DNA of 64,000 bases from a virus, in IMG/VR virus record IMGVR_UViG_3300033148_007227, positions 1-64,000 of that record. The stretch is one strand, 5' to 3'. The notes beneath the pieces were generated by a model. That model searched no databases and was not told where the DNA came from. It worked only from the letters and a program-made list of their open reading frames with translations. Of the stretch, positions 10,298-44,135 are shown piece by piece (positions within the stretch are counted from its first letter, which is position 1; every line of letters starts with the position of its first letter). The translations under genes were made by a program, and so were the position numbers.

Positions 10298-10567
10298 ATG
10301 AATACTGTAAAAAAAGCATTGGATGATTATGGAAAATTGTACTGGTCGAAGTATCTTGAAAATACAGGAATGGACAAACAACTTTTGAAAGTAGCTATAA
10401 ATGAAGTTACAGAATTGGTTAGTATTGAAGATGAGCTAACTCCTCACGATCTTAGAAAATTTTATATAACTCTTGCTAAGAAATATGAAAGTAATGGTGG
10501 TTTGGAGTTTATAAGAAATCTTCGTTCGGATTTAATAGAGTTTGTCAAAAAGGAGATTGAAAAATGA
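10298..10567 (+). CDS. Hypothetical protein
   Basis: ORF with RBS; begins MNTVKKAL. Confidence 0.75.
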   Translation: MNTVKKALDDYGKLYWSKYLENTGMDKQLLKVAINEVTELVSIEDELTPHDLRKFYITLAKKYESNGGLEFIRNLRSDLIEFVKKEIEK

Positions 10568-11964
10568 ACACTGTGAGTGATTTTTATAGCAGATTGTATC
10601 AAGAATCAAAAGAAGTAAAAAGTCTTAATGAAGCTAAAGGATATGTTATTAATCCTATGATAGTGAAAGGAAAGAAATTTTATCAGGATATAAAGAATGT
10701 GGGTGGGGATGATATCTATTGGAGAGAACTGGAAAAGATAGCTTTGAATAGAAAATCATCTTCCTGGACTCTTGAAGATTTGTCTGATCTTCATGGATAT
10801 TTTTCTAGATTTGGATCAGCAGGGGATGTAGTTAGATTTATTCAGGATTACTTGAAACAGGAAGCAGATAAGGTGGATTGGAATGATCTATCTCGATTTG
10901 CCAAACAGATAGATGATGAAACTGATTTTAGAAATGTTGTAAATTATATGAATATCGAAGGTTCTGATCTTAAATCTAAAATTATAAGAAGTTATCTTGG
11001 TGAGTTTGTGCGGGAATATAGAGGTAAAGTTTTGGGAGAAGACTTAAATATTTCGATTAATCCTAATGAATTTGGTGTGGATACAGAAAAAGAAATTATG
11101 GATTCTATGGGAAATGCTGTTACTGAAATTGCAAAAGAAGAATCTGAAAAAATTCTTAGTACAGCGTCTAAAGAATCTAGGCATAAACTTTATGAAACTT
11201 TGATAACTCTTGCAAATGAATACTTAGATGGAGGATTAAATTCTAAACAGTTAATTAAAAAATTAGAAAAAATTGATAGAGATTTAGCTGATGGAGTTAG
11301 ACATCTGGCAGAAGAAAATGAAATTGTAAAGATGATTGAAGAACCTGAAGAAATTAAATATGTAAAGTTAAATAAAAATGTGAAGTATGGAGAAGATATA
11401 CTTGTTGAAAAAGGAAGTGTAGGAAAAGTGATAAAAGAAAATAAGAAAGAAATGACTGTAAGGTTTGATGATGGAATAATAGTAACTTCTGATAAAGATG
11501 ATTTTGAAGAAGTATCAAAAAAGAAAACAAAATCTCAAAAGTATCTGATAAAAGCTTACGCTCTTGATAATGAATCTAGGAGATCAATTGAGCGAGGATA
11601 TTGTATTGTTTGCTCAGGAAAACTGATACCTAGAAGCAGAAAGGTATTATCTTGTTCAAGTTGTAAAGCTATGTATGAAGGTTTGAGAATAAAAGCTCAG
11701 GAAGGGGTATATAACGATTATTCAGGAACAACAGCCAATCCTATTGGAATAGGTAAAGCTGTCAGAATAGAAGGGAATCCAGCTAGTGCTTATTATGGAA
11801 AAATTGGGTTAATAGAAAGAATCACAGAAGACGGCTTTATTGGGGTTAATCTTAGAGATGGTAATTACATAGAAAGACCTGCTGAAGATTTGACTCCGGC
11901 TCCTAAGCAGGATTTTTATAAGAATATTGAAAATATAAAATCTGATGTTGATATGGGGGAATAA
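10564..11964 (+). CDS. Mosaic hypothetical protein (SH3/KOW-like and Zn-ribbon modules)
   Basis: Modules separated by KKKTKSQ and RIKAQ; CIVC...CSSC. Confidence 0.75.
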   Translation: MNTVSDFYSRLYQESKEVKSLNEAKGYVINPMIVKGKKFYQDIKNVGGDDIYWRELEKIALNRKSSSWTLEDLSDLHGYFSRFGSAGDVVRFIQDYLKQEADKVDWNDLSRFAKQIDDETDFRNVVNYMNIEGSDLKSKIIRSYLGEFVREYRGKVLGEDLNISINPNEFGVDTEKEIMDSMGNAVTEIAKEESEKILSTASKESRHKLYETLITLANEYLDGGLNSKQLIKKLEKIDRDLADGVRHLAEENEIVKMIEEPEEIKYVKLNKNVKYGEDILVEKGSVGKVIKENKKEMTVRFDDGIIVTSDKDDFEEVSKKKTKSQKYLIKAYALDNESRRSIERGYCIVCSGKLIPRSRKVLSCSSCKAMYEGLRIKAQEGVYNDYSGTTANPIGIGKAVRIEGNPASAYYGKIGLIERITEDGFIGVNLRDGNYIERPAEDLTPAPKQDFYKNIENIKSDVDMGE

Positions 11965-11967
11965 TAT

Positions 11968-12291
11968 ATGGATTTTTTGATGCTGATATTTCCATTTTTG
12001 GTACTATTATTAAGTATACCTTTAATTATAAAAGCTAAAAAGATAAGAAAGTATCAAAAATATTTGAAAGATGTAGCTGAATCTCTTGCTAGTATAAATA
12101 AGATTTTTATGGTTTGGGTTGTGTACGATCCATTTTTGTTTATATATTTCATGTATTTTTGTAAACAAAGGTTGAACTTGGATGATGACTCTTTGAATAA
12201 TTTGAATTTGATGATTAAAATGGCAAATAAAGTATATGAAGGAAATTTAGATAGAGATATAGAAAGGGAGTCGAGAGAAATGATACATTAA
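11968..12291 (+). CDS. Putative membrane protein
   Basis: Hydrophobic N-terminus followed by basic residues. Confidence 0.7.
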   Translation: MDFLMLIFPFLVLLLSIPLIIKAKKIRKYQKYLKDVAESLASINKIFMVWVVYDPFLFIYFMYFCKQRLNLDDDSLNNLNLMIKMANKVYEGNLDRDIERESREMIH

Positions 12292-12300
12292 GGGCTAAAA

Positions 12301-14841
12301 ATGTCAATAAAAAATTATAATGTTATACATGATGGGGTAGTTGTAGAAGCTTCGGGGGGTTTCCCAACTTCTCATGCTTCAACTCATAAAACTTCTGGTT
12401 CTGATCCTGTAGACCATTCTGATCTTTTTACTGATTATCTGATTCAAGTCTCTTCTGATTTTGTAGCTAATGATAACTATAATATTTATCCAACAATAGT
12501 TGCAGGACTGGCTCGTGCTAATGCTTTGGTTTCTGGTGGAGTACCTTTGGTAGAGGTGCGTGTAAGACCTGGATATTACGAAGAAGAGGGTCTTGAAGTT
12601 CAAAGTGGTGTGGTTCTATCTATGGACCCTGGTTCGTCTCTAGTGGGGCCGTCTGGAGGTGCCTCCACGTATTTGCTTCGAGCAAGCGGAACAGGGAGAT
12701 TAAAAAATGTTCTTGTAATCCCGCAATCAAACGGTCCTACAGGTGTTGGAGTTATTCAGATAGCCCCAGATCAAAACAACACCATCCACGAAAACATAAT
12801 CGCAGTGGTGCTTTGGAAAACTGGATGGGACGCAGTATGTAAGGTGGAAGATGTTACGGGTCATGAAAGTGTGTTAATGTTCAATCTGGTTTTCACATCC
12901 TTGCCCGTCGGCACTGCCCTCCTGAATGTAGGGGGCGGGGGAATTACTTACTATAAGGGTATTTTCTCAGGTGAGCGATCCTTGAAAACAATCAATGGGC
13001 TGGTGGGTAGTACGCAGGAAATAGGATTATTTGAATTTTGTGAGTTCGCTGGCCCTGTGGAACTGGATACATATGCAATCATTAATTGTGGAGGGACGAC
13101 ACCCCTGGATTTAAGCACAGCGATTCTTCCCGATGGTTTGAACCAGGTTGTATATCTCCCTCGTGCGACTCAAATGGAACAAAGCGTTTATCCTGATCCG
13201 TTGGTAGTGGGACCTCCACGTGGATTAGTAAATAATGCACTGGTAAAGATCAATGATGTTACGAATGGGTTGATTCTGGATGTGGGTCAGTTGCGGGACA
13301 ATTTGGGTATACTGATAACTGAAGTCCAGATGGAGTCGGATGTGAGTAGCGGGAATTATGAAGGGCTACTGGTCGAAACGTTCGGGTCGGATTTATCCGG
13401 TATAGACCAATCGTCTGGAAAAACCGAAGGTGTGATTCTGAACGGTGATGGTATAGCAATATTTGGAGAAGATGTAACCATTGACAATTTTGAAGGGTAT
13501 GCCAACACCAGTGCCCTGCGAACAGTGTGGTCGGAGTATCCCAACTCCTTAAATCTAAGCATAAACTTGATGGACAGCGGTGGGGCTGTGGGATCAGGTA
13601 AACACATGCAAATTACACTCGACAACAATAATGCTTCTGGTGTCGCCGTGCGAAGGACGCCCTCATCCTCCGACTTTTCCGATCAGGCAGAAATATTTTT
13701 TTATGCTCGTGGTGATGGTAGTGCTATCGGTCCAAATCATTTCCTGCGTTTGCGGGACAACTTAGGAAATACAATCGTATCGCCAGGCTTTAAGGTCAGT
13801 GCTGTATGGGAACTCAAGCGCATAAAATTCACTGCTGACTTCAGGTATCATGATATCGCATACATTGAGATCGTGGTTGGTACGGTAACCGGGTCGGGAA
13901 ATATTTACATAGATGATATATGGGTCGAGAACATTGAAACGTTTTACCAAGAGGGTATAATTTCTGACTGGAATGATGTGACGGAGGTAAATACTTGGAC
14001 CGAGGATGGAGGTGTTGTTGCTTCCTTCAGCACTGCTGACCCCTATTCCGGTGCTGGTAATATTTTGTTGACAAGTATGCCTTCGGGGACATGGTCAATT
14101 TCCAAAACATTTGCTAGTCCTTTAGCTATCTCCAAGCACACGACTATAGCCGCACGTATGAGGTACAGATGGGATTCTACACCTGCTGGATCAAATTTGC
14201 GGTTGCGACTTGAATTTGAGGATGGGTCAGGCAATGTAATATGGTTCCCTGGCTATACCATTGACAGGGTCAATGATACAGTGCAACTGGAGATCAGGCC
14301 CAATGTTAAGAGATGGGAAACTGTGGAATTTTTCTTCACAGATTATTCATTTACTAATGGATCGGCCTTTGATTGGGATGATATAAGGGGAGTAAAAATT
14401 TTTAATTCTATATCTCCGTCTCCAACTGGTGATCTCCATCTCGATTTATTGGAATTTGGACGGCCATCAACAATCGAATCCACGGAACTCGATATTACAG
14501 GATCGGTATTCACACGGTCCAAACCTCACGCTTCATATAGTAGCAGGGGGGAGGTGGACATTTTCGGGATACTTTATGATGGGGTTGAAAACCGGATCGA
14601 GTTGAACTTCAGTGCTCCTGCAACACCATTTAACCGGAATCTCCCCCTGTCGGATGAGGAAGTTCATTTTGCCTGTTATGATGCTCAGATAAGACGTCTT
14701 GGGTCCCCACCCAACCCAGGGCCAGACGGGACTTATGGTGAGTTTCTAGATGTAACTCCTGATGCGTCATTGACTGTAAAATACCGATTTTATTCCAGGC
14801 TCAGAATGAAGAGTGGTGGGATAACCGTGATATGGGATTAG
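12301..14841 (+). CDS. Putative virion receptor-binding/structural protein with two carbohydrate-binding-like jelly-roll domains
   Basis: HASTHKTSGSDPV fibre-type motif; IDNFEGY...FYARGDGS...IYIDDIWV and FDWDDIRGVKI...LHLDLLEFG resemble galactose-binding-like CBMs; visibly GC-richer than flanks. Confidence 0.6.
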   Translation: MSIKNYNVIHDGVVVEASGGFPTSHASTHKTSGSDPVDHSDLFTDYLIQVSSDFVANDNYNIYPTIVAGLARANALVSGGVPLVEVRVRPGYYEEEGLEVQSGVVLSMDPGSSLVGPSGGASTYLLRASGTGRLKNVLVIPQSNGPTGVGVIQIAPDQNNTIHENIIAVVLWKTGWDAVCKVEDVTGHESVLMFNLVFTSLPVGTALLNVGGGGITYYKGIFSGERSLKTINGLVGSTQEIGLFEFCEFAGPVELDTYAIINCGGTTPLDLSTAILPDGLNQVVYLPRATQMEQSVYPDPLVVGPPRGLVNNALVKINDVTNGLILDVGQLRDNLGILITEVQMESDVSSGNYEGLLVETFGSDLSGIDQSSGKTEGVILNGDGIAIFGEDVTIDNFEGYANTSALRTVWSEYPNSLNLSINLMDSGGAVGSGKHMQITLDNNNASGVAVRRTPSSSDFSDQAEIFFYARGDGSAIGPNHFLRLRDNLGNTIVSPGFKVSAVWELKRIKFTADFRYHDIAYIEIVVGTVTGSGNIYIDDIWVENIETFYQEGIISDWNDVTEVNTWTEDGGVVASFSTADPYSGAGNILLTSMPSGTWSISKTFASPLAISKHTTIAARMRYRWDSTPAGSNLRLRLEFEDGSGNVIWFPGYTIDRVNDTVQLEIRPNVKRWETVEFFFTDYSFTNGSAFDWDDIRGVKIFNSISPSPTGDLHLDLLEFGRPSTIESTELDITGSVFTRSKPHASYSSRGEVDIFGILYDGVENRIELNFSAPATPFNRNLPLSDEEVHFACYDAQIRRLGSPPNPGPDGTYGEFLDVTPDASLTVKYRFYSRLRMKSGGITVIWD

Positions 14842-17595: not shown

Positions 17596-17871
17596 ATGAA
17601 AAGAGTAAAAGTAAGTAAAAGAATTGCAAACTCTGAAGATTCTCTAGATTCTCTTATAAAGATTTTGGGAGACCTTATTAGTCTTCTTGAGGAAGTATCT
17701 AATGAATATTATAATGATGCTAAAGATTATGAAAATGATGATGATATGAGGAACTGGGCTGAAGGTATGGCTGAAGGTATTGAATATAGTGCTGATTTTA
17801 TTAGAAAAAGGTTAAGATGGAGAGGTATTGAATTGAGTGCTAAGTTTGTTAGAGAAAGGTTAATGAGATAA
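17596..17871 (+). CDS. Small acidic protein, paralogue A
   Basis: MKRVKVSKRIANS leader; near-duplicate of 17884..18111. Confidence 0.8.
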   Translation: MKRVKVSKRIANSEDSLDSLIKILGDLISLLEEVSNEYYNDAKDYENDDDMRNWAEGMAEGIEYSADFIRKRLRWRGIELSAKFVRERLMR

Positions 17872-17883
17872 GAAGATAAAAAA

Positions 17884-18111
17884 ATGAAAAGAGTAAAAGT
17901 AAGTAAAAAAATTGTAAGCTCCGAAGATTCTCTTGTAGAGAGTTTGGAAGACCTTATTAGTTTTCTTGAGGAAACATCTAACGAATATTATAATGACGCT
18001 GAAGATTTTGAAGAAGATGCTGTTATGAGGAGCTGGTATGAAGGAATGGCTAAAGGTACTGAATTGAGTGCTAAGTTTATCAGAGAAAGGTTAATGAGAT
18101 GGGAGAGATAA
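17884..18111 (+). CDS. Small acidic protein, paralogue B
   Basis: MKRVKVSKKIVSS leader; tandem duplicate of 17596..17871. Confidence 0.8.
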   Translation: MKRVKVSKKIVSSEDSLVESLEDLISFLEETSNEYYNDAEDFEEDAVMRSWYEGMAKGTELSAKFIRERLMRWER

Positions 18112-18114
18112 AGA

Positions 18115-18435
18115 ATGAAAAGACTCAAAAAGTTTTCTGGTGCTTGGGTAGTTCCATTTACTGAAGAACGAGCACGGCAGTTGCAGGATATTGTGAATTG
18201 GATTGAGATAGGAGGACTTAGGGATATTGTGGATGAGAAACTATATGATGTATATGGATCAGATGAATTGTTTGACAGTATCGAGGACTTGATTGATGAT
18301 ATATCTGATAAACTTTCTAATTTGATTAGAACTGAAGTTTTGGGTTTGCTTTCAGATTATGATGATGAACCTGAAGGATTTCAGGAGAAACTTGAGCCAG
18401 AAGCTAAAGAAATATTGGAGAAACTTGTGAGATAA
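18115..18435 (+). CDS. Small acidic protein with basic leader
   Basis: MKRLKKFS followed by a D/E-rich body. Confidence 0.75.
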   Translation: MKRLKKFSGAWVVPFTEERARQLQDIVNWIEIGGLRDIVDEKLYDVYGSDELFDSIEDLIDDISDKLSNLIRTEVLGLLSDYDDEPEGFQEKLEPEAKEILEKLVR

Positions 18436-18529
18436 ATGAAAATAAGGAAAGAAATTAAAAAATGAAAAGAGTAATCAAAATTGGTGAAAACTTAAAAATT
18501 TATTGGGATGGTTAAGGGAGGAAAGAAAG

Positions 18530-19624
18530 ATGACAAGGAAGATGCAAATTGTGAAAGTTAAATACTCTGATTCTGAAATCAGAAATAATCAAACAGGAAC
18601 CGGAAAGATTGTGTCTTCATCTATGAATGGAACAAATGTGAAAATCAGACAGGGTAAGAACAACAAACTTATAAATATTCCTCCTGGTAATATTAGAGTT
18701 ATAGGAAATAAGAAAGCTCAGGATGATGAAGATGGTGATTTTGTACCTGGTGAGTGGGATGAGCAAACAGTAACAATAGAGATGGCTAAGGAACTTGAGA
18801 TTGATCCTAATCTTGATATAGATGATTTACTCGATATTTTTGAATCTTTGGCTGAGAGAGTAGGAGAGGATTTTTACCCAGAGGATGTGGTAGACGCTCT
18901 TAATTTGGATCAATTTGATATCTCTACAATAGATGGATTGGAAAAAGCTGTGGACTTGATTCTTGAAAGTTATGATTTTTTTCCTGTGGAAAAAGGTGGT
19001 GTGTTTGAGGAATTAGAAGAATTTATAGATATATATGTTGAAGATGCTTCAGATTTTGGTGTGTTTTACTTTAAAGTTACAGCAGAAGGAAAAGAATATC
19101 TAGTTTTTATGGATGATAATGATGCTAGACATTATGCTGAAAGTTATGTAAAAGAAATGATGGAGACAGAACCAGAACTTTTTGCTAAGGATTTTTTGAA
19201 AGATTATGTTTATATCTCTCTAACTGATAGAAGGATGATTGCTCTTGATATGGCAAATAGTTATGTCTCGGATATTGATGATTATAGAGTAGTAGCGGAA
19301 GCTGGTATAGAAGATGAGTATATAGAAGCTGAAGAAAATGAAAATTATGAAATGATGAATGAGATAGTTGAAGAAGCCAGAGTAATTTTATCTGATAAGA
19401 TAGTGGCTGAGTGGGAAGAAGGGTTGAAAAATGATCCTATTGGTTTTTTGATTGATGAACAAGGTCTCTATTCAAGTGTTGATGAAATTGATTTCTTACA
19501 GTTTGATTATGATGAAGCAGTTAAGGATGCAATACGGATAGATGGGGTCGCTCATTTCATTGCTCATTATGATGGAAAAGAAAGGGAAACATCTAATGGG
19601 TTGTTATATTATAGAACTAATTAA
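18530..19624 (+). CDS. Highly acidic protein (possible DNA mimic) behind a basic SH3-like leader
   Basis: ATG 18530 after GGGAGG; the composition switches at NKKAQ to a D/E-rich domain. Confidence 0.75.
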   Translation: MTRKMQIVKVKYSDSEIRNNQTGTGKIVSSSMNGTNVKIRQGKNNKLINIPPGNIRVIGNKKAQDDEDGDFVPGEWDEQTVTIEMAKELEIDPNLDIDDLLDIFESLAERVGEDFYPEDVVDALNLDQFDISTIDGLEKAVDLILESYDFFPVEKGGVFEELEEFIDIYVEDASDFGVFYFKVTAEGKEYLVFMDDNDARHYAESYVKEMMETEPELFAKDFLKDYVYISLTDRRMIALDMANSYVSDIDDYRVVAEAGIEDEYIEAEENENYEMMNEIVEEARVILSDKIVAEWEEGLKNDPIGFLIDEQGLYSSVDEIDFLQFDYDEAVKDAIRIDGVAHFIAHYDGKERETSNGLLYYRTN

Positions 19625-19739
19625 TATTTAAGGTAAGATAATATGATGGGTGATTCAGTGAGAGTTAGTTTTGATTTCTATAATTATTTTCGTCATCATG
19701 GAAACCTGTCGAGAAAACTGTTGGGGTTTAGAAGTTTGA

Positions 19740-19958
19740 ATGAGAGAAATGAAAAAACTGAGAAATAAGAAGAAAGGAAAAGTTATAGGAGAATATTTGG
19801 TTATTGGTGTTCTCAGAAATAATGAATCTGAATCTTTTTATGTTCCTGAAGGTTATATTCCTGTGTCGGCTACTGCTTGGCCTTTTGGACATAGAATTAT
19901 ATGTGAAAAGAAAAGTTTACTCTATAAATATAGAAGATGGATAAGAGGAATTATTTAG
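19740..19958 (+). CDS. Hypothetical protein
   Basis: ORF only. Confidence 0.5.
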   Translation: MREMKKLRNKKKGKVIGEYLVIGVLRNNESESFYVPEGYIPVSATAWPFGHRIICEKKSLLYKYRRWIRGII

Positions 19959-20006
19959 TTAGAGAAAGTTAAAATTTGTATTATTTATTTAGGAGGAATT
20001 GAAAAT

Positions 20007-20234
20007 ATGAAAAGGATTAAACAATCTCAAACTTTATCTTCTGAGTACGCTTCAGTATTGAGAGATATGCTTGCTAATGAAAGTTTTTCAAATGTTTTGG
20101 ATTATATGGCTATGGAGGCCAGATATTATCGTGTTGAAGAAGATAATCCTGGGTTTATGGATATTGCAAATATTATAGAAGAAGCTAAAAGAAAAGTATG
20201 GGACATTGAAGGTGAGATGGTAGAAGGAGTTTGA
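20007..20234 (+). CDS. Small acidic protein with MKRIKQSQ leader
   Basis: AGGAGG RBS; basic leader followed by acidic helix. Confidence 0.8.
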   Translation: MKRIKQSQTLSSEYASVLRDMLANESFSNVLDYMAMEARYYRVEEDNPGFMDIANIIEEAKRKVWDIEGEMVEGV

Positions 20235-20236
20235 TT

Positions 20237-20385
20237 ATGAAAAGAATTAAATGAGCACAGGAAGGTCTTGAAACTGTTCTGATCTGGTATTATCAACAGT
20301 TCATAAAATTGATGGGTATCTGATAGAACTAAGGGATTTAAGGACGGCTTTGGAAGAGGCCAGCAAAGGAATAGCGGAAGAATAA
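20237..20385 (+). pseudogene. Decayed small gene with MKRIK*AQ leader
   Basis: AAGGAG RBS; MKRIK*AQEGLETV, then a 1-nt frameshift into SDLVLSTVHKIDGYLIELRDLRTALEEASKGIAEE*. Confidence 0.55.
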
Positions 20386-20387
20386 TT

Positions 20388-21047
20388 ATGTGGAAATTGG
20401 ATTCATTAAATAAAGCACAATTTATTTCTTTTATGATGGAAAAATGTAAACTTGTCAAACCTTATTGTGAAGAATGTAATTTTAATAGTAAAGATGGAAA
20501 AAGAGGACTATGTGATAAATTAAGAGATAAAGTAAAAAATACACTAAAAAATGTTGAGAATGAAGATTACAAAAAAATTAAAGAGCTGGTGAAAGTAATG
20601 CCTGAAAAAGATAAAAGAGATTTTACTATGAAAGAATTTGAAAGTGAGAAGCATACTTGCTTGAGGAGAACAAGTCAGATTGGTCCTTGGGATAGAAGTG
20701 AAAATCTTGACACCTGGGAAAAGAGAGGTAAGGATAGAGTTTGTTCATTCTGTGGATCAATGCACCCTGATGAGTTTTTAAAGTTTTGTAAAGATGTTGA
20801 TGGAATTAATAGATATGTGTTACAATCAGATAGGAAGAATAAGTTTTATATAAGAAGACCAGAAGTCAATAATGCAGGAGAGGGAGCTATAAAGTTTTAT
20901 TTACATCATTCTAAAGGATTTAGTGATGAAGAAATTGCTATAATCAAAGGAGCTATTGAATTATCAAACTTGAAAGGAAATGAGAGAATGAAAGAATACA
21001 AACAGAAACTAAAAAAATTGATTGAAGAGGATAAAAAGGAAGAATAG
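20388..21047 (+). CDS. Hypothetical Zn-binding phage protein
   Basis: CEEC, CSFCGSMHP, KFYLHH motifs. Confidence 0.75.
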   Translation: MWKLDSLNKAQFISFMMEKCKLVKPYCEECNFNSKDGKRGLCDKLRDKVKNTLKNVENEDYKKIKELVKVMPEKDKRDFTMKEFESEKHTCLRRTSQIGPWDRSENLDTWEKRGKDRVCSFCGSMHPDEFLKFCKDVDGINRYVLQSDRKNKFYIRRPEVNNAGEGAIKFYLHHSKGFSDEEIAIIKGAIELSNLKGNERMKEYKQKLKKLIEEDKKEE

Positions 21048-21255
21048 GTTGGCTTATTTTAATTCATGTTCTATTTGTAAAAAAGATGACATTGGACTTG
21101 AAACTTGTTTCAAATGTTCAGATTTTACATTTGACAGACCTATATCTTTTATACTTCCTAGTTCTAAATTGACAAGAGATGAATTTATAACAAAATTGTA
21201 TCAGATGATTATGGAAGATAAGAAATTTGGAATGGAATTTTTTGAATTAGGATGA
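21022..21255 (+). CDS. Small Cys-rich hypothetical protein
   Basis: TTG start after GAAG; CSIC...CFKC. Confidence 0.5.
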   Translation: MKRIKRKNRLAYFNSCSICKKDDIGLETCFKCSDFTFDRPISFILPSSKLTRDEFITKLYQMIMEDKKFGMEFFELG

Positions 21256-21343: not shown

Positions 21344-22246
21344 ATGTCAAAAGAATCAATGCTAACAAACGTGGCACGGAAAGGTCGTGCTAAGAAGGTA
21401 ATGAGCCTGCTCGAAGTCAGTGCAGATGTATACGCTGATAATGATGTTGGTTATGATCTCCGGTGGGCGGCTGAAGAAGGTGAGACGGAAGCAGTAAAAC
21501 TTTTGCTCGATGCTGGTGCGGATGTACACACTGATAATGATTATGCTCTTCGTTTAGCGGCTGAAAATGGTCATACGGAAATAGTAAAAATCCTACTCGA
21601 TGCAGGTGCAGATGTACACGCTGAAGATGATTATGCTCTTCGTTGGGCGGCTAATGAAGGTCATGCGGACGTGGTAAAAATCCTGCTGGATGCTGGTGCG
21701 GATGTACATACTAGAAATGATTGTGCTCTCCAGTGGGCGGCTAAAAACGGTCATACGGAAGTAGTAAAAATCCTCCTCGAAGCTGGAGCAGGTATACATG
21801 CTAATGGTGGTTGCGCTCTCTGTTGGGCGGCTGAATATGGTCATACAGAGGTGGTGAAAGTCCTGCTCGATGTCGGGGCGGATATACATGCTAACAATGA
21901 CGAGGCTCTTCGTTGGACGGCTAAAAATGGTTATGCAGAAGTAGTAAAAATTTTGCTTGATGCTGGAGCGAATATACACGCTATAGATGATTATGCTCTC
22001 CGTTGGGCGGCTAAAAATGGACATATAGACGTAGTAAAACTCCTGCTCGATGCTGGAGCGAATATACATGCTGATGATGATTACGCTCTCCGGTGGGCGG
22101 CTAGAAATGGCCACGTGGACGTGGTGAAACTCCTACTTGATGCAGGAGCGGATGTACATGCTGAGAATGATTACGCTCTCCGCTGGGCAATCGAAAATGG
22201 TTATATGGAGATAGTGGAAATTTTACAGCAAGCTGATAATCAATAG
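21344..22246 (+). CDS. Ankyrin-repeat protein (about 9 repeats)
   Basis: MSKESMLTNVARKG N-cap, 30-aa repeats, IVEILQQADNQ C-cap. Confidence 0.93.
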   Translation: MSKESMLTNVARKGRAKKVMSLLEVSADVYADNDVGYDLRWAAEEGETEAVKLLLDAGADVHTDNDYALRLAAENGHTEIVKILLDAGADVHAEDDYALRWAANEGHADVVKILLDAGADVHTRNDCALQWAAKNGHTEVVKILLEAGAGIHANGGCALCWAAEYGHTEVVKVLLDVGADIHANNDEALRWTAKNGYAEVVKILLDAGANIHAIDDYALRWAAKNGHIDVVKLLLDAGANIHADDDYALRWAARNGHVDVVKLLLDAGADVHAENDYALRWAIENGYMEIVEILQQADNQ

Positions 22247-22267
22247 CCAGGAAGGAAAGAAGGAAAA

Positions 22268-32414: not shown

Positions 32415-35400
32415 ATGAGAAAAATAAATTCTATTTCAGAAGAAGTTAGGTTACTTCCTTCTATAGCTGCTCGTAATGAAAAAGGAAGATTAAATATTCA
32501 GGAAGCTATTAATATTGTTGCTGATAAATACAAACTTTCAAAAAATCCTGATGATTATGAATATATGGTTTTAATTGCTCTTCATGCTGATGAGCCTAAT
32601 TGTAATGGAGATGCTTTTACACTTGAAGAACTGGAAAGATTCGATCCTAAGTATGGATGTAAAGTTTATCAAAGTTTTACTCTTAAACCTCATTTTATTG
32701 AACATCGGCAGGATGGGGAAGTTTACGGTTTTGTTCTGGATTCTCATCTTGAGAAACCAAAAGAAGGAAATGCTTATGTAGAACTCTGTATTGCAGTTGA
32801 TAAAACCAAAGACCCAGTTTATGGAGAAATGGTTAAGAATGGGGAAGTTGATAAATTCTCTATGGGGTGTTCTGTTGATTATACAGTTTGTAATGTTTGT
32901 GGAAATGAAAGTTATGATGAAGCTAGCTTTTGCAATCATATTTTGAATCATAAAATGTCAACTTTTAAGGTTGCAGATGAGAATGGAAATGAAGAAGAAA
33001 AGTTGGCTTATGAAAAATGCTTCGGAGTTGTGTTTGATGAAATTTCTGCTGTGGGTGATCCTGCTGATGAAGGAGCTTTGAAGCAGGAAACTTTGAAAGC
33101 GGCGATGAAGAAAAGGTTTAAAAAGTTAGAAAAATTAAGTAAGAAAAAAGCTCAGAATGATTTTGATATAGATGAATTGTTATGGGAAGAATTAAAAGAA
33201 TATGTAGGAGCTATAATTTCAAAGTATGGAGATGAGATTAGATATGATCTTGATAAAATAGATGAATTGTTATGGAAAGAATATAGGATTAATGTTGAAG
33301 ATACAGGATTTGACTTGGGTAAGTTAGTTTCTGAGTATTTAATGGAGCGTGAAGGGAAGAAAGATAGAAAAAGTAAAAAATCTCGTTATGAGGGTTCTCT
33401 TTCATCTTTTGGTGGTGATGTGTTTGAGATTATTAAGGATAAATCTGATTTATTAGATTCTCCATTAAAACCTTTAAAATTTGATAATGAGTCTGTAGTT
33501 ATTCATTTTGGTTATGAAGGAATAAATTATTATATGTCATTTGAGAGATATCGTGTACGTGGTCCTGTAACATTGTTTCAAGTTAGTATTTCTGCAACAG
33601 GTGATGGTATTACAGGTGTTATAGGTTTGTCTGGTAATATTTATTCTGATCCACATGATGTGGCTTCTGATCTTATGAATGCATTAGTGGCTTATGAACA
33701 GTTTGGTGATGTAAGAGATGCTGGAACTGTAAAATCTATAAGGAAATTGAGAAATAGAAAAAAGAAATCTCAGAAATGGGTTGATTGGGGTATAAAAGAA
33801 GATAAACCTAAAGAAATATTTGGTAAAAGTAAGGTTTCATTTTCAGAAAGTGAATTAAGGAGTATAGCTAAGAATCTTATAAGAGAAGGATTGAGTAAAA
33901 CTAAAGTTATAGAAACTCTTATGAGATTGAGTAATATCACTCCTTTTGCAACTGCCGAACAAATTGTGGAGGATATAATGTACATGGTAGCTGATAAGAA
34001 AAAGGTTGGGGCACAATCTTCATTCTCAAGAAATCAAGGACATATCAAGAAGGTTTCAAGACTTATAAAAAAGTATAGAGAAGAAACCGAGAGAAAAGAA
34101 TGGGCTTTGGTTTCTAAGGATGATGCAAGCAAAATTTTGAAGTGGTTTGGTCCTGAGAAACCTTCTAAAGAGGAAGTTCAAAAAGAGGAACAACGTGTTC
34201 AGTATTTCAAAAGTAAAGGTAGAAAAATAAAGAAAGTTCAAAATTCAGAAGCTACAAATTATAAATATTGGATGCACACTGTATCAGGTGATGTATATGC
34301 TGTTGGTGTGAATGAAAGAGGAGAAGTTGTAGAATCTGTTGGTCCATTATATTATAAAGAATATCAGGAATTTCAACCAGAAGATTTTAGACATAATATG
34401 ATAACTGAAGATAATGAATGGTTTAATGAAAACTCTGAAGATTTTGTATTAAAATCCAGTAGAAAGAAAGCTCAAGTTCCTGATGAAAATGTTGTTCCTT
34501 CTGAAAAGGAGAGGGGATGGTTATTGAACTTGTCTCAAGATATAACAACTGGTGAGGTTACAGATGAATTTTCTGCTCAACAGTGGTTCAGAGATAAGTA
34601 TAATCGTGAACCTAATTATGGTGAGCAGGAAAATATGAGAAGTTTATTTTCTAAGAAAGGATTGAAAAATAGATTTCTCAAGAAAAAGAAGTTGGATGAG
34701 TCTGGTGTATATGGAAAAACTTTAAATAAAAACAGGAGGAATAAAATGAGAGAAAGAACTAGGAGTGTTAGGAAAACTCCTGTTTCTAGGACTGTTGAAA
34801 GTAAAATTCTTAGAAACAGAAAGGGTAGAAGTTTAGAAAATAACAAAAGAAGAAATCTTAGAAACAGGAAATCGGCAAAGGATTTAGTAAAGAAAGAGTA
34901 TTATATTGAAGGTATTGATAAGAGAGCTACAGATGTGAGGTATCCTAATTATAGAGATTGGAAAATTACTGTATTAGGAAATGGAAAGGTTAAGTTTGTC
35001 AGACTTGGTAATGATAGGAGAACTTCTTTCAGAAAGGTTCTGAAAGCTGGTGATGAGAGAAGGTTTGCAGAAAATGTTCTTGATGATTTGGTGAGAAAGG
35101 GGTTGGCTTTTGTAGTTAAGAAATATGGATTTGGAAGATTTAAATCAATTCTTGAAGATGGAACAATTGACAGGGGTACTGGCAGTCTTTCTCCTAGAGA
35201 AGATAGGTTGACTTCTGATGGTATAACTGATAAAAAGGATTATTCTTTAAAGAATATGAAGGATCAGGTTTCAGATGATGGGTATTGGGATAAGATGAGT
35301 GGTAGAAGGTATAGAAGAAAAGGTTTGAAACTTAACAAATGGAGATTCATAAAAGCTAAGAAGTTGGCTAGAGCTTTGGAGAGACTTTATGAAAAATATG

Positions 35401-36311
35401 AGAAGAAAAGTGATAAAGAAGCTAGGAAGATCATACTTGATTTATTTACAAAAGGAGCTTTGAAGAGGAGAGCTCAAGATGATGAAGAACTTCCTGATAA
35501 TTTGGGACAGGTAATAGAGGAGAATGTAGAGGTAGTGGATGTTCCCGGTTTAGTGGAGGAAGTTACTAATTATTATGTGGATGATATGGAAATGAGTCCT
35601 GAAGATGCCGCTACTGAGATAGTTGATGAATTTGTAGAAAGTGATGCTCCTGATGAAATAAAAGATGAAATAAAGAAAGAAGTGGAGGATATTGCAGAAA
35701 CAGTTGAAGCTGAAACACAGGAGGTTGTGGAAGAAGAGATGGAAGATGTGAGGGAAAAGGTTGATGAGATAGCTGATAAGGTTCCTTCGATGGAAGAGAT
35801 GGGAATAGATGAAGAGGAGATTGAAGTTGCATCTTCCAGAAGAGCGAAGGAATTAAATAAAGCTTTTAGAGATAAATTCTATAGAGCTTTAAAACTTGCG
35901 GCTACAAGACAACTTTTAAACATAGATACTTCCGGTCTCTTTGCTATAAAGGACGAGCTTTGTGAGGAATTGATTCATCCTCATGGAAAGTTCGGAGGTT
36001 TGAAGACAGACACGGCTCTTGATATCATTGAAAGGTCTTTTAGAAAGGTTCTTTCATCAGAGGCTATAGATGAATTTATAAAGTCGGCTGAAAGATTAAT
36101 GGAAATGAATGATGATGCTTTCAATCAGATCGAAGATGATATTAGGAATCTTTCCCCTGTAAGTGTATCGGGGATGTCTGACAAAGAAAAGGAAGCTAGT
36201 AAAAATGACTTGACTGTTGTGGGAAGAACTGGTTCTGGAATTTATAGTGATGAGAATTTTAAAGATTTAGTCAAGAAATCTTTACCTGGTTTTGGACTAG
36301 ACAAAAGTTAA
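32415..36311 (+). CDS. Prohead maturation protease fused to multiple modules and an acidic scaffold-like C-terminus
   Basis: N-terminal PNCNGDAF, FIEH, FSMGCSV..TVCNVC..FCNH, FDEISAVGDPADEGA (HK97/assemblin-type protease pattern); lies between portal and capsid genes. Confidence 0.8.
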   Translation: MRKINSISEEVRLLPSIAARNEKGRLNIQEAINIVADKYKLSKNPDDYEYMVLIALHADEPNCNGDAFTLEELERFDPKYGCKVYQSFTLKPHFIEHRQDGEVYGFVLDSHLEKPKEGNAYVELCIAVDKTKDPVYGEMVKNGEVDKFSMGCSVDYTVCNVCGNESYDEASFCNHILNHKMSTFKVADENGNEEEKLAYEKCFGVVFDEISAVGDPADEGALKQETLKAAMKKRFKKLEKLSKKKAQNDFDIDELLWEELKEYVGAIISKYGDEIRYDLDKIDELLWKEYRINVEDTGFDLGKLVSEYLMEREGKKDRKSKKSRYEGSLSSFGGDVFEIIKDKSDLLDSPLKPLKFDNESVVIHFGYEGINYYMSFERYRVRGPVTLFQVSISATGDGITGVIGLSGNIYSDPHDVASDLMNALVAYEQFGDVRDAGTVKSIRKLRNRKKKSQKWVDWGIKEDKPKEIFGKSKVSFSESELRSIAKNLIREGLSKTKVIETLMRLSNITPFATAEQIVEDIMYMVADKKKVGAQSSFSRNQGHIKKVSRLIKKYREETERKEWALVSKDDASKILKWFGPEKPSKEEVQKEEQRVQYFKSKGRKIKKVQNSEATNYKYWMHTVSGDVYAVGVNERGEVVESVGPLYYKEYQEFQPEDFRHNMITEDNEWFNENSEDFVLKSSRKKAQVPDENVVPSEKERGWLLNLSQDITTGEVTDEFSAQQWFRDKYNREPNYGEQENMRSLFSKKGLKNRFLKKKKLDESGVYGKTLNKNRRNKMRERTRSVRKTPVSRTVESKILRNRKGRSLENNKRRNLRNRKSAKDLVKKEYYIEGIDKRATDVRYPNYRDWKITVLGNGKVKFVRLGNDRRTSFRKVLKAGDERRFAENVLDDLVRKGLAFVVKKYGFGRFKSILEDGTIDRGTGSLSPREDRLTSDGITDKKDYSLKNMKDQVSDDGYWDKMSGRRYRRKGLKLNKWRFIKAKKLARALERLYEKYEKKSDKEARKIILDLFTKGALKRRAQDDEELPDNLGQVIEENVEVVDVPGLVEEVTNYYVDDMEMSPEDAATEIVDEFVESDAPDEIKDEIKKEVEDIAETVEAETQEVVEEEMEDVREKVDEIADKVPSMEEMGIDEEEIEVASSRRAKELNKAFRDKFYRALKLAATRQLLNIDTSGLFAIKDELCEELIHPHGKFGGLKTDTALDIIERSFRKVLSSEAIDEFIKSAERLMEMNDDAFNQIEDDIRNLSPVSVSGMSDKEKEASKNDLTVVGRTGSGIYSDENFKDLVKKSLPGFGLDKS

Positions 36312-37046: not shown

Positions 37047-38099
37047 ATGCGAAAGAATCCTTATAGAGAATATAAGTCTGGTAGAACAGGAAAGTTATGG
37101 GAGGAAGACCCTTTTGAGAAGGATTTTGATAGAAATGGTGAGCTTAATGCTTGGGATAATAAAGATGCTGGAAATAGAATTAGTGATATTTTAAGAAGAG
37201 CTTCTTCTCAAAAAACTGAAGTTATACGTAAATCTTTAGTAGGAGAAGACGTTAGGCGACGTGTGCTTACTGCGGCGGCTAAAGACCCTCAAGAGGGGAT
37301 GAAGGTTATAGCTCAGACTCTTGGAGAAGTTGTTTACAAGATCGTGGACTATGCTGGATGGACTCGAAAGGTTCTGGATGTTGTTACTCTGAATCAGGGT
37401 GAAATATTTAGAATCCCGAAAGATGTTGATGTTCTTGGTTGGGTTGTTGCTGGTGATGGTCAAACCATAGTTTCACAGCTTCGTTCAAAGTATGTTTTCC
37501 CTGGTGAGTTCAAGAATACAGCCTTTGTGGAGATTGATATACTTGATATCGTACAGGCTAATTGGGATATTTTTGATCGTGGTGTGGATCGTGCGGCTCA
37601 GCAGATAATGAGAGGTGAGGATGTTCGGGCACAACAGCTTTTGGATAGGGTTGGTAGAACTGTCAATGATGTTGTTACCTACGCGACTTTGAATCTTAAT
37701 GTCTTTGAAGACGTGAGATTTCAGGTTGAAAGACACAGGCTGACTTGTGATAAGTTCATCATCTCAAGAAGTGAACTTTCTGACATAGTTAAAACTATGT
37801 CCACGGAAGTTGATTTTGTTACTCAGAGAGAGTTGATCCTAGCAGGTTATATTGGGAATGTTCTGAATTGTCAGATCATTACATCTGCTGGTATTGGAGT
37901 AGAGGAGGTTGTTCCTCCTGGTAGGATTTATGCTGTTACTGAGGGTAAGTATCTCGGAAGGCTTGGTGAAAGATTATCACTTCAGAGTGAAGAGTATAAT
38001 ACTCTTGTGAGAAACGAGATTAAGAAGGGTGTTGCTCAGTACGAGATTATTGGTCTTGGTAACGGTAACAGTAAGGCTGTGGCTATCGGTTCTAAGTAA
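37047..38099 (+). CDS. Major capsid protein (HK97 fold)
   Basis: 350 aa, strong AGGAGG RBS, DYAGWTRKVLDV, QIMRGED, VTQRELILAGYIG, VPPGRIY; gene order. Confidence 0.85.
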   Translation: MRKNPYREYKSGRTGKLWEEDPFEKDFDRNGELNAWDNKDAGNRISDILRRASSQKTEVIRKSLVGEDVRRRVLTAAAKDPQEGMKVIAQTLGEVVYKIVDYAGWTRKVLDVVTLNQGEIFRIPKDVDVLGWVVAGDGQTIVSQLRSKYVFPGEFKNTAFVEIDILDIVQANWDIFDRGVDRAAQQIMRGEDVRAQQLLDRVGRTVNDVVTYATLNLNVFEDVRFQVERHRLTCDKFIISRSELSDIVKTMSTEVDFVTQRELILAGYIGNVLNCQIITSAGIGVEEVVPPGRIYAVTEGKYLGRLGERLSLQSEEYNTLVRNEIKKGVAQYEIIGLGNGNSKAVAIGSK

Positions 38100-39804: not shown

Positions 39805-39813
39805 GAGCTAAAT

Positions 39814-41388: not shown

Positions 41389-41402
41389 TAAGGAGATATT
41401 AA

Positions 41403-42488
41403 ATGAAAAAGAAATCATTGGAACTTTGGGAACCGGCTTCTAATTATTTAGGGGAAGATTTTAGAGATTATTATATAGGTCCTTCTATTAGTAGAGATAG
41501 TGGTGCTCTTGAAAAATCTAATTTTGAAGTGGCTTTGGAGATGTTAGGGGGAGAAGGTGATGGGGTTAGTGTTGAAAGATTTAGTCATTGGGCGGTAGGA
41601 TGGATTGAGGTTATTTTAGTTCACAAAGATGCCTCAGATAAAATTGCTATATTGGAAGATATTGAAAGACGATTGGAAGATTATCCTATTCTTGATGAAT
41701 ATGATTATTCAGAAAAAGAAAGTGAGGAGATTACTGAGAATTATAATTCATGGGGAAAAGATTATATTATAAACATCATAAATTTGGATGAACTCATGGA
41801 TTTTAATTTTGATTCTTTATCTGATGAAACTAGAGCAACAATTGAAGATTCCTTGTGGAATCTTTATAGAAATAATGCTGAATACACAGGATCAGAAGTA
41901 GATGTTGATGAAAGAGGAGTAGAGGAGGATTGGAAAAGAGAAATTAAAAGATTGTCGGAAAAAGGAATTAACTTTATATATACTTATGATGGGATGATAG
42001 TTGGTGTTTGGGGGGAATCTGATATAGAAGAACTGAAACAATATTATGGGGAAGATGAAATCAAAGCTCTTCCTGAACATGAGCCAGTTCCTAAAGAGCA
42101 GATGAGTTTGCCTTTTGAAAGTAAAAAAGCTCAGGAATTTGAAGTAGTGAATCCTGAAGATGAGGATTTTTGGAAAAATACATATCTGATTTATCTCGGA
42201 CCTTTTGGAAGCAAGTTTGTTGTTTATGCTGATAATGAGGATGATGCTCTTGATTATTTGATTGATTATGCTGACGAGAAAAATTATAAAGGCTTCTTTT
42301 TGGATGATGAGAAAATTAATGAACTTGAAGAAGAGGGATGTTTAGATGAATATATAAGTGGTGGGAATTATGGAAAGTATTTAAGTTTTCCAGAGAATGA
42401 AGTTAGGATTAAAAGAATAAAAAGTTTAAGTTTTATAAATTCTTCTAAATATAAAAAGCTCAAGAGTTTAAGCCTGGAGATAAAGTAG
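41403..42488 (+). CDS. Acidic multi-module protein
   Basis: MKKKS leader; RDSGALEKSNF...FSHWAVGWIE...DYPILDE module; second module after SKKAQ. Confidence 0.8.
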   Translation: MKKKSLELWEPASNYLGEDFRDYYIGPSISRDSGALEKSNFEVALEMLGGEGDGVSVERFSHWAVGWIEVILVHKDASDKIAILEDIERRLEDYPILDEYDYSEKESEEITENYNSWGKDYIINIINLDELMDFNFDSLSDETRATIEDSLWNLYRNNAEYTGSEVDVDERGVEEDWKREIKRLSEKGINFIYTYDGMIVGVWGESDIEELKQYYGEDEIKALPEHEPVPKEQMSLPFESKKAQEFEVVNPEDEDFWKNTYLIYLGPFGSKFVVYADNEDDALDYLIDYADEKNYKGFFLDDEKINELEEEGCLDEYISGGNYGKYLSFPENEVRIKRIKSLSFINSSKYKKLKSLSLEIK

Positions 42489-42589: not shown

Positions 42590-42607
42590 TAATTAAAGGA
42601 GGAAAAA

Positions 42608-42865: not shown

Positions 42866-42868
42866 AAA

Positions 42869-43045
42869 ATGAAAATTATTGATAATGAAAAAAGTAATTA
42901 AATTGATTTTGATACTTATGATGAAGCTATGGACTATGCTAAGTCTTTAACTGAGAATTGATGAGAAACAGTTAAAATTTATGAAGATGGAATAAAAGAA
43001 TCTGTTGGTTGTGTTGATAAAGAAGGTGATGGTAAATTTCATTAA
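42869..43045 (+). pseudogene. Decayed small gene
   Basis: MKIIDNEKSN*IDFDTYDEAMDYAKSLTEN**ETVKIYEDG...KFH*; coding-like frame with three stops. Confidence 0.45.
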
Positions 43046-43071
43046 TTTAGATTTTTGAGAAATTATTTATT

Positions 43072-43815
43072 ATGGGGATAATTGAAATATCAAAAGAATT
43101 AAGAAATTGGATAATCCTGATTGTAGTTTTAGGAGTATTGGGGTTGGTAGGTTGTCTATATGGAAAGAACTATATAGACAATAAAAATAAACAAATAAAT
43201 GATCTTGAGAAAAAACTGAGAGAGAAACCTAAAGTTGAAATCAAGTACCAGGATAGGGTAGTTGAAAAGGAAGTTATCAAATATAAAGATAGATGGCGTG
43301 TAAAGACGGAAGAGAGGATAGTCTATAAAGAACCCTCACTGGAGGTGCAAAAGGCATTTTTGATCTATTGCGAAGCATGTGAGAAGGAAAATATATCTCC
43401 TTTGATAAGTATAGATGCTCTGAGATTCAAATGCACTGCTAATATCTGCAATCAGGAAGAATCAGAATGTGATGTGCAGGAGGGATATACGATTGTTAAA
43501 GAAAAAGAAATTAAAGATAAAATAGCTAAAATTTCTGTGATTGGTGGTTATGAATTTGTAAATAAAGGTATGATGATAGGAGCTAGTTTTATAGATTATA
43601 AAGGAATAACAGTGGGAGCAGATATGGTTTCTGATTTTGAAAATGCTGAAAATTCAGGAATTGGAGGGTTTGTAGGGTATAGACCACAAACTAAGAAATG
43701 GAAATTGAATACAGTTGTTGGAGTAGGAGCTTTAAGTCATTTTGATGATTTTTCTGAGATAGGACTTCAAGGTTTCATAGGTTTTAATATAATTGATCGG
43801 AAGAGTAGAAAATGA
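43072..43815 (+). CDS. Membrane-anchored coiled-coil protein with C-terminal amphipathic beta-strands (spanin-like candidate)
   Basis: N-terminal TM, coiled coil, Cys cluster, Gly/aromatic alternating strands ending GFIGFNI. Confidence 0.6.
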   Translation: MGIIEISKELRNWIILIVVLGVLGLVGCLYGKNYIDNKNKQINDLEKKLREKPKVEIKYQDRVVEKEVIKYKDRWRVKTEERIVYKEPSLEVQKAFLIYCEACEKENISPLISIDALRFKCTANICNQEESECDVQEGYTIVKEKEIKDKIAKISVIGGYEFVNKGMMIGASFIDYKGITVGADMVSDFENAENSGIGGFVGYRPQTKKWKLNTVVGVGALSHFDDFSEIGLQGFIGFNIIDRKSRK

Positions 43816-44135
43816 AAAAAATAAGAATATATGAGAAACTTAAAGGTTGGAAATTAAAATGGTATGTTGCTGGATGGGATGATTTGGATTTGGCAAGAAA
43901 ATGGTATGAGGCAGGATGGGACAATCCTACCTCAGCTATGGGTTTTTATGAAGCTGGTTGGTTAGACCCTATATTAGCTCTTGAATGGAAAAAATCTGGA
44001 TGGAGTGGGATTGATGCTGATTATGCTCTGAAATATTATAATAAAGGTTTTGATCCTTCAGAGGCTCTTCATTTTTTTGAAGATGAAGGTTTAAGACCTG
44101 ATGAAGCTTTGGAGATGATGAAAAATGACGTTTAA
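43812..44135 (+). CDS. W-x-x-A-G-W repeat protein
   Basis: About 14-aa repeats WYVAGW/WYEAGW/FYEAGW/WKKSGW/YYNKGF. Confidence 0.75.
   Translation: MKKIRIYEKLKGWKLKWYVAGWDDLDLARKWYEAGWDNPTSAMGFYEAGWLDPILALEWKKSGWSGIDADYALKYYNKGFDPSEALHFFEDEGLRPDEALEMMKNDV

Follow-up and report, generated by a model that had tools for sequence, protein, structure and literature searches.

The window analysed here is a stretch of 64,000 nucleotides, bases 1-64000 of a 103,855-nucleotide IMG/VR viral contig, and spans the half of an uncultured jumbo phage genome that encodes head and tail. Two very long proteins encoded in its head module, hereafter giant 1 and giant 2, are enriched in a four-residue motif, [KR][KR][AS][QE] (the strict motif), and giant 2 begins with what is, by sequence profile and predicted fold, a prohead protease. 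The reading we favour, at a rough probability of 0.55, is that the motif marks where the head protease encoded by the phage itself cuts, turning the two polyproteins into internal head proteins and scaffold. A first-pass annotation of the region between 10 and 44 kb had described a basic signal that heads and subdivides many proteins; we find that the motif is real, but that it is a property of the two giants rather than of many proteins.

26383-30063, plus strand: giant 1, 1226 amino acids, a beads-on-a-string protein between terminase and portal (Pfam, PHROG, sequence read-through).
32415-36311, plus strand: giant 2, 1298 amino acids, with a prohead protease at the N-terminus, variable modules and a basic linker in between, and a conserved, acidic helical region at the C-terminus (PHROG 18299/2774; relatives).

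Expected counts were first taken from shuffles that preserve either the composition of each protein or that of each 40-residue block. By these nulls the strict motif occurs 13 times in the window where 4.8-5.0 are expected, and nine times in the two giants where 1.3-1.5 are expected; the narrower form [KR][KR]AQ is found six times against 0.4. Four of five control motifs with permuted order or substituted residues were flat, the other being [QE][AS][KR][KR], which is also high (12 versus 4.8 in the window, 4 versus 1.3-1.5 in the giants). Because basic residues cluster, we also applied a null that is conditioned on dipeptides and fixes the observed [KR][KR] and [AS][QE] pairs. Under it the giants retain their excess (9 versus 1.60, odds ratio 7.6, p=1.7e-5), whereas the 10-44 kb region minus the giants has two strict sites for 1.97 expected and all non-giant proteins of the contig have four for 6.65. 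The excess over a composition-matched background that the first-pass annotation called for is therefore present in the giants and missing from the rest of the region. A motif scan found no strict site in the window's tail genes, as had been anticipated, nor in the contig from 64 to 104 kb. The result was reproduced in an independent relative of giant 2, P0002, which has six strict sites against 1.45 expected (p=0.003); the part of P0002 with no counterpart in the window still has three against 0.35-0.54 (p=0.005-0.015).

As an exact word, KKAQ is the second most over-represented 4-mer of the 104-kb contig proteome after GGGG (5 versus 0.21; ankyrin-repeat paralogs were left out of the k-mer statistics). 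It would be borderline as a blind discovery, since 3e-6 multiplied by 23,649 4-mers gives about 0.07 after multiple-testing correction. All 11 internal strings on which the signal had been based are present, about 6 nucleotides or less from where they had been placed. Two of them, RIKAQ in the protein encoded from 10564 and VVKAE in the WYL protein, match only a loose K-A-[QE] pattern, which shows no overall enrichment. Non-head proteins have fewer matches to the related pattern [KR].A[QE] than expected (5 versus 11.1 over the whole contig outside 10-44 kb), possibly a weak hint of site avoidance. An origin of the motif at the DNA level was rejected, because codons at the sites vary synonymously and the DNA word is nearly confined to the reading frame; a minor oddity is that the alanine is encoded by GCT in nine of nine cases, against 62% in general usage.

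The protease and the candidate sites of giant 2 are laid out as follows.

32415-33155, plus strand: gp21/assemblin-fold serine protease domain, residues 1-247, with an SMGC motif and a Cys/His cluster (tblastn, AlphaFold2, invariant columns).
33144-33155, plus strand: KKAQ, residues 244-247, at the C-terminal end of the protease domain and a candidate for autocleavage (junction conservation).
33762-33773, plus strand: KKSQ, residues 450-453, where a block of homology to P0002 starts.
34464-34475, plus strand: KKAQ, residues 684-687, ahead of the EKExGW(L/I)NL block (conserved junction; coil in the model).
35466-35477, plus strand: RRAQ, residues 1018-1021, at the start of the acidic tail (conserved junction; a helix end, then an 8-residue coil).
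35478-36308, plus strand: acidic region and conserved helical C-terminal domain, residues 1022-1298, putative scaffold (best-conserved non-protease block in all relatives).

Residues 18-222 of giant 2 match PHROG 18299, 'head maturation protease', with an E value of 1.5e-33, and tblastn aligns the protein with annotated prohead core proteases of jumbo phages, Gordonia phages and mycobacteriophages at 31-33% identity (E down to 3e-16); no sequence match to the protease domain was found in Pfam, NCBIfam or PDB. An AlphaFold2 model of the domain, built from eight relatives, has a predicted local distance difference test (pLDDT) value of 69. Its top match is T4 gp21 (5JBL; Foldseek E 0.11; VIA-align Z 7.2, root-mean-square deviation 3.6 Å, 130 of 165 residues), followed by at least seven herpesvirus assemblins or proteases at Z 4-6.3, the level of Z being moderate. 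Profile and predicted fold thus agree on a prohead protease of the gp21/assemblin fold, which bears out the earlier suggestion that the open reading frame at 32415 starts with a head protease. Ser149 (in SMGC), His97, His111 and His175 are invariant in the sequence alignment of the eight relatives. Also invariant in all eight, directly after the SMG serine motif, are Cys152, Cys159, Cys162, Cys173 and His175 (window 32859-32945, residues ~149-177), and this cluster resembles a zinc ribbon inserted into a gp21-type protease.

Six relatives of giant 2 were compared (P0002-P0005, L002 and L003, with P0161 being the protease piece of L002), together with P0162, a 423-residue protein that has the protease end only. 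L002 and L003 are the only independent loci from alignment-based scans, a single-sequence scan of viral contigs gave no close relatives, and cultured phages match giant 2 in the protease domain only. The relatives have in common the protease and the C-terminal 500 residues, consisting of a folded domain, an acidic stretch and the conserved helical end, whereas the middle differs; in P0002 (1789 residues) this variable middle includes an AAA+ ATPase, placed between sites. An ATPase gene lies between the protease and major capsid genes of Dickeya phage JA29, and as BLAST finds no similarity between it and the P0002 module, the likeness is a positional analogy only. In L002 the gene is split into a 408-residue protease piece and a 614-residue C-terminal piece.

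From its position beside the decoration and major capsid genes, we infer that the C-terminal region of giant 2 is a scaffold; a predicted complex of the major capsid protein with residues 1140-1298 was uninformative (score 0.13, mark 0.32). Within the frame, a perfect AGGAGG stands 6 nucleotides before an in-frame ATG at nucleotide 34746 (residue 778; window 34728-34748). The methionine is kept in P0002, and the separate C-terminal gene of L002 begins near the aligned position. The sequence may thus contain a nested scaffold start in the style of lambda C/Nu3, but about one such combination of AGGAGG and in-frame ATG is expected by chance. L002 also has eight paralogous acidic genes of ~175 residues, 30-58% identical, spread across its head module (L002:3651-8164 and L002:11411-13050), three of which stand between the halves of its split protease-scaffold gene. 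These paralogs have no known domain, and a hidden Markov model search found no homolog of them among the window proteins.

The relatives retain a [KR]-x-A-[QE] core at three giant 2 junctions and at two in the giant 1 family, within variable flanks that are Pro-rich or acidic. The junction after the protease reads KKAQ, KKAQ, KKAQ and KKTAQ in four of the six relatives; in giant 2 itself, KKAQ247 ends ~30 residues past the last conserved protease block, in a dip of pLDDT between two helices. This is directly after the protease fold, where relatives in the gp21 family autocleave. The EKExGW(L/I)NL block is present in five members, all of which carry RKKAQ, KRKAQ, RVKAQ, SKKAQ or KRVLSQ ahead of it, the site being followed by a Pro-rich linker that varies in length and sequence. 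Ahead of the acidic tail we find KRRAQ, KKAQ, VKAQ, RKAQ and RTAE in five of seven. Since the modules between sites differ among relatives and blocks of homology begin at the sites, the comparison is evidence that modules have been exchanged there, as far as sequences can tell.

In an AlphaFold2 model of residues 230-1298 (pLDDT 52, about half of it below 50), all four strict sites of giant 2 fall in coil or at low pLDDT, 5-25 residues before the next structured block; KKSQ 450-453, for one, is in a low-confidence segment ~22 residues ahead of such a block. At this low model quality the placement is supportive only. The looser RRFAE (residues 882-886) lies inside a confident helix and is probably no site.

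Giant 1 is a chain of unrelated domains, comprising a GNAT domain (residues 23-102), a CxxC...CxxC zinc ribbon, acidic helices, DUF5661 (residues 309-354), a helical domain, an SH3-like domain, a phrog_2423 domain and a small alpha/beta domain, joined by K/R-rich linkers. It thus combines several unrelated domains in a protein encoded among virion genes, as polyvalent proteins do. No close relatives of it were found in cultured phages, and NCBIfam gives no specific subtype for the GNAT domain, for which reason the idea of acetylation at newly exposed A/S N-termini was dropped. Its C-terminal part belongs to a conserved family that is free-standing (305-405 residues) in several relatives and aligned from their residue ~7; the N-termini of these free-standing members line up with a fossil start, MKRLYY, in giant 1, and L002:5455-6678 encodes a coiled-coil member in the same slot between terminase and portal. 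The ESM Atlas gave no usable match for the family.

27175-27186, plus strand: KKSQ, residues 265-268, in a basic linker ahead of DUF5661 (strict motif, without homolog support).
27796-27807, plus strand: KKAE, residues 472-475, within KVIGWIWKKAE, an 11-mer that recurs at residues 676-686.
28429-28440, plus strand: KKAE, residues 683-686, within KVIDWVWKKAE (repeated element).
28831-30060, plus strand: conserved coiled-coil head-module family, residues 817-1226, with the fossil start MKRLYY at residue 817 (homologs, SMC-like coiled-coil matches).
29056-29067, plus strand: KKAQ, residues 892-895, ~75 residues into the conserved family, candidate propeptide site (aligned family).
29932-29943, plus strand: RKAE, residues 1184-1187, ~40 residues before the C-terminus (aligned family).

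The two sites in the conserved family are those with support from homologs. At the ~75-residue position, six of eight family members have KKAQ, KTAQ, KIAQ, RLAQ, RLAQ or RQAE with weakly conserved flanks (seven members if P0012, unaligned there, is excluded), and ~40 residues from the C-terminus four of eight have KRKAE, KEAQ, KRKAQ or KRKAQ. KKAQ 892-895 is a candidate that, by analogy, would define an N-terminal propeptide of a length seen in head proteins of SPN3US and phiKZ. KKWSQ (residues 1072-1076), conserved together with its flanks, is probably no site. The four strict sites between 27175 and 29067 are spaced 207, 211 and 209 residues apart, with modules that are not detectably homologous, and this spacing is not reproduced in P0002. 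We rejected the idea that sites are a by-product of domain duplication, because BLAST finds no internal repeats within the giants and Smith-Waterman comparison between modules gives z-scores of only 4-7, driven by the basic linkers and the WxWKKAE end.

Two further proteins of the region carry one strict site each, a number compatible with chance.

18710-18721, plus strand: KKAQ, residues 70-73 of the protein encoded from 18503, followed by DDEDGD; possibly a propeptide site (C-terminal half homologous to an L002 head-module gene).
42123-42134, plus strand: KKAQ, residues 241-244 of the protein encoded from 41403, followed by an acidic stretch (suggestive).

The broader claims of the first-pass annotation fared less well. 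It had noted a flip from K/R-rich to D/E-rich composition at the sites, which is seen at about six of the 11 and not at the others. Its pseudo-start MKRIK*AQ is indeed there, at nucleotide 20237, but the basic leaders of small genes do not carry the motif: none of the 36 proteins of the region has [KR][KR].?[AS][QE] in its first 14 residues, so that a capsid-targeting tag on small genes is not supported, and the WYL, SH3/KOW and Zn-ribbon proteins outside the giants, proposed as cargo, show no enrichment. Its further step, injection of the pieces, is not supported either. A T4-type capsid-targeting sequence (CTS) is a leader of 10-20 residues ending in the protease motif, and the leaders here are simply basic. 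What they do show is a soft head-versus-tail trend and no defined tag. The mean number of K/R in residues 2-8 is 1.94 in head genes and 0.59 in tail genes (p=0.003), with 1.3-1.7 in other regions, and at least three K/R occur there in 7 of 16 head proteins but in none of 17 tail proteins. Electrostatic attraction to the acidic scaffold-like tail might explain the trend, as might an influence on translation initiation. Five small proteins, starting at 17596, 17884, 18115, 20007 and 21022 (window 17596-21255), begin with MKR[VIL]K, and most are acidic beyond the leader; those at 17596 and 17884 are paralogs with 67% identity. The portal and protease genes of L002 and L003 also begin with MKRK, MKRN or MRK.

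If the strict sites are cut, the following scheme would account for the two giants. Giant 2, as a core component, would assemble together with the capsid protein, and the modules fused to it would enter the prohead without a tag; none would be needed for domains covalently linked to the core (protease, scaffold-like tail, coiled-coil head protein). Giant 1 would carry in its GNAT domain, DUF5661 and other modules likewise, if the coiled-coil head protein is a core component. Inside the prohead the protease would cut the linkers at a [KR]-x-[AS]-[QE] core, mostly K-K-A-Q here. The first-pass annotation had the cut at a basic...A/S site; by family precedent it would come after an acidic or amide residue, which makes Q/E the likelier P1, and the scissile bond would most probably follow Q/E by analogy with T4, phiKZ and SPN3US, all of which cut after Glu. 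A first cut would free the protease from its C-terminal extension, as in the autocleavage of SPN3US gp245, and the remaining cuts would give fragments of ~100-330 residues and detach the scaffold tail. Being too large to leave the shell, such fragments would stay as internal head proteins. That parts of the giants are separate genes in relatives (the halves of giant 2 in L002, the C-terminal family of giant 1) is in keeping with processing. In a more ambitious version, a gp21-like protease of unusual K-K-A-Q specificity would process the polyprotein that it heads, and folded modules swapped within the clade between standard sites (the AAA+ ATPase of P0002, uncharacterised domains here, GNAT and DUF5661 on giant 1) would be packaged automatically, set free inside the head and delivered along with the DNA, as a plug-in cargo cassette; this we consider unlikely.

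Several observations weigh against cleavage at the motif, which is predicted from sequence and models only. The motif is unlike every characterised gp21-type motif ([LI]xE, [SAG]xE, AxE), and in its last position Q outnumbers E nine to four. No site was found in the major capsid and portal proteins, both of which are cut in T4 and phiKZ. In L003, whose major capsid protein is 75% identical, the motif is not enriched and two junctions read KRAS and KFAD; in L002 there is no site after the protease and no strict site at the point where the gene is split. Cleavage would therefore require that specificity drifts within the clade. The N-terminal sites of giant 1 lack homolog support, and the N-terminus of the free-standing family (residue ~817) has no strict site. 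The two KKAE sites in the repeated WxWKKAE element may be structural rather than cut, since the P0012 counterpart of KVIxWxWKKAE is KIVDWIWEKAKKAL, without Q/E. Finally, four of four giant 2 sites in coil has a chance expectation of ~1 in 16, in a model that is itself weak.

The likeliest of the other explanations holds that the giants function intact and that the motif is a conserved linker element that is never cut, serving for example to dock, to bind DNA or to cap a helix. The motif always lies in or beside K/R-rich linkers, the WxWKKAE repeat and KKW[SA]Q are conserved along with their flanks as structural elements would be, and some polyvalent proteins are delivered full length (PMC5512222). 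Charge, however, hardly explains a small residue plus Q/E after the basic pair when most permuted controls are flat, nor does an uncut linker explain why the motif stands precisely where the protease fold ends, the place at which family relatives autocleave, or why parts of the giants occur as separate genes in relatives; we regard it as a lesser possibility. The scaffold might instead be the only target, with giant 2 a protease-scaffold fusion, perhaps with a nested start at residue 778, and its modules no cargo. This overlaps with cleavage by the head protease as we favour it and differs solely in the fate of the pieces. It fits the conserved acidic helical tail beside the gene for a major capsid protein without a delta domain, the ATG at 34746 with its perfect AGGAGG near the start of the L002 C-terminal gene, and the 1082-residue protease fusion at the same position in cultured phage Pupper. 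Fragments of ~200 residues, on the other hand, far exceed the debris able to exit a capsid, P0002 embeds an AAA+ ATPase and giant 1 has GNAT and other folded domains, and such an AGGAGG-ATG pair is expected about once by chance, so that clearance of scaffold alone seems quite improbable.

Equally hard to sustain is a portable capsid-targeting tag, the basic-A/S signal being borne by many proteins and the captured domains being released and injected as effectors. The real enrichment in the head polyproteins speaks for it, as do the start common to the five MKR[VIL]K proteins, the GNAT and AAA+ modules within polyproteins, the precedents of the T4 CTS and of polyvalent proteins, and the fact that 13 of 35 proteins in 10-44 kb have at least three K/R in residues 2-8 against 7 of 77 (p=0.0009). 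Yet no leader has the motif, the region outside the giants has the number of sites expected, the WYL protein has only the loose VVKAE, two of the MKR-start proteins are 67% paralogs, and non-head regions are also fairly basic at their N-termini, so that the difference comes mainly from a depletion in tail genes. Lastly, that the motif arose by chance or from the composition of K-rich, low-GC coding sequence and was picked post hoc is very improbable. The motif was defined after inspection of the data, exact KKAQ is borderline once ~24,000 4-mers are corrected for, and the permuted control [QE][AS][KR][KR] is also high. The dipeptide-conditioned excess in the giants, its replication in P0002, including the part unique to that protein, and conservation that is position-specific across relatives all speak against it.

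The genomic setting is that of a head module followed by a tail module. CheckV estimates the contig to be ~47% complete, so the source is probably a jumbo phage with a genome of ~200 kb. In the window nearly every gene is on the plus strand, the guanine-plus-cytosine (GC) content is ~33%, and purine skew is strong. The order in the head module is large terminase, giant 1, portal, giant 2, an immunoglobulin-like protein of 228 residues, major capsid protein and connector-type genes, after which the tail module starts at ~44.3 kb.

24423-26294, plus strand: large terminase (phrog_17415, E 1e-40).
30185-32323, plus strand: portal protein, without the motif (phrog_16240, E 1e-71).
37047-38099, plus strand: major capsid protein, 350 amino acids, without a delta domain and without the strict motif (phrog_2522, E 3e-44).

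The portal protein has an insertion of ~134 residues (residues ~382-515, window ~31328-31729) that the L002 portal lacks, its flanks being joined exactly there (GEVTYS|SAEKGLQIF). The insertion starts with Ser, ends in ...SYN followed by Ser, and matches Pfam Intein_splicing with E 4e-7, below the cutoff; it is likely a mini-intein. The L003 portal, of 1511 residues, has two larger insertions. Elsewhere, an open reading frame of 846 residues (window 12301-14841) has a local GC content of ~41% against 30-33% and no PHROG or Pfam match, and ankyrin-repeat paralogs with a constant M[ST]KESML N-cap occur at window 135-1401 and 21344-22975 and at 97-103 kb of the contig.

Should the sites be cut, this clade would offer a compact rule, readable from sequence, by which a jumbo phage loads and partitions its internal head proteins: a four-residue linker site together with fusion to the protease or the scaffold would suffice. 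The range of gp21-type specificities would widen to basic P4/P3 and Gln in the last position, mature virion proteins would become predictable from metagenomic sequence, and a simple design for loading foreign proteins into phage heads would suggest itself. Should they not be cut, the finding would be two large multidomain head proteins that share a conserved linker motif.

In comparison with known systems, giant 2 has its closest parallels in T4 gp21, phiKZ gp175 and SPN3US gp245 (MEROPS S77/S80), with which it shares an assemblin-fold serine protease in the head module and a short motif reused in several head proteins. Proteases of this type cut many head proteins at a motif of three residues, the last of them Glu, and also cleave themselves at the C-terminus; the characterised motifs are [LI]xE, [SAG]xE and AxE, T4, phiKZ and SPN3US all cut after Glu, and SPN3US gp245 and phiKZ gp175 autocleave after the protease fold, in gp245 at AQE-203 (PMC5694885, PMC10052503). 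The candidate site directly after the protease fold of giant 2 resembles that of gp245, and the long N-terminal propeptide proposed for the giant 1 family resembles those of SPN3US and phiKZ, whose products include internal and ejection proteins. Unlike in these phages, the motif reads [KR][KR][AS][QE] and favours Q, and the protease, 210-270 residues long in T4, phiKZ and SPN3US, is the N-terminal head of a 1298-residue polyprotein. The capsid and portal proteins also lack a site, no short CTS-like leader ends in the motif, and the system is known from its sequence alone.

For polyvalent proteins, packaging, delivery and proteolytic processing have been predicted, and some contain assemblin-like peptidases (Iyer et al. 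2017; PMC5512222). Giant 1 resembles them in its many domains (GNAT, Zn ribbon, DUF5661) and its place among virion genes. The assemblin-like peptidase is reported to be always C-terminal in those proteins (PMC5512222), whereas here the protease is N-terminal. The signal proposed here also differs, being a defined, recurring linker motif for the head protease, acting in cis or in trans, and not for a zincin-like metallopeptidase (MPTase).

In having protease and scaffold-like region in one frame beside the major capsid gene, giant 2 is also comparable to lambda C/Nu3 and P2 gpO. These are protease-scaffold fusions or nested genes whose protease folds are unrelated to that of giant 2. Closer is gp94 of Gordonia phage Pupper, a 1082-residue 'capsid maturation protease' of the PHROG 2774 type, whose N-terminal domain is likewise gp21-like (32% identity) and whose neighbouring genes stand in the same order; it lacks KKAQ, with a mild A-x-E excess only (16 versus 9.5), and giant 2 differs from it further in having exchangeable folded modules between its sites. 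Viral proteases of the 3C/3CL type cut polyproteins after Gln. By analogy only, their polyproteins are similar in that the protease is embedded in its own substrate and that a small residue and Gln/Glu recur close to the bond that is cut; the fold, the viruses and the biology are unrelated, and homology is not implied. The head-maturation scheme of T4, phiKZ and SPN3US and large fusions with an N-terminal protease beside the capsid gene, such as Pupper gp94, are thus already known. New here are the distinct candidate specificity, its dense use in the protease's own protein and in the neighbouring polyvalent protein, and the evidence of module exchange between sites.

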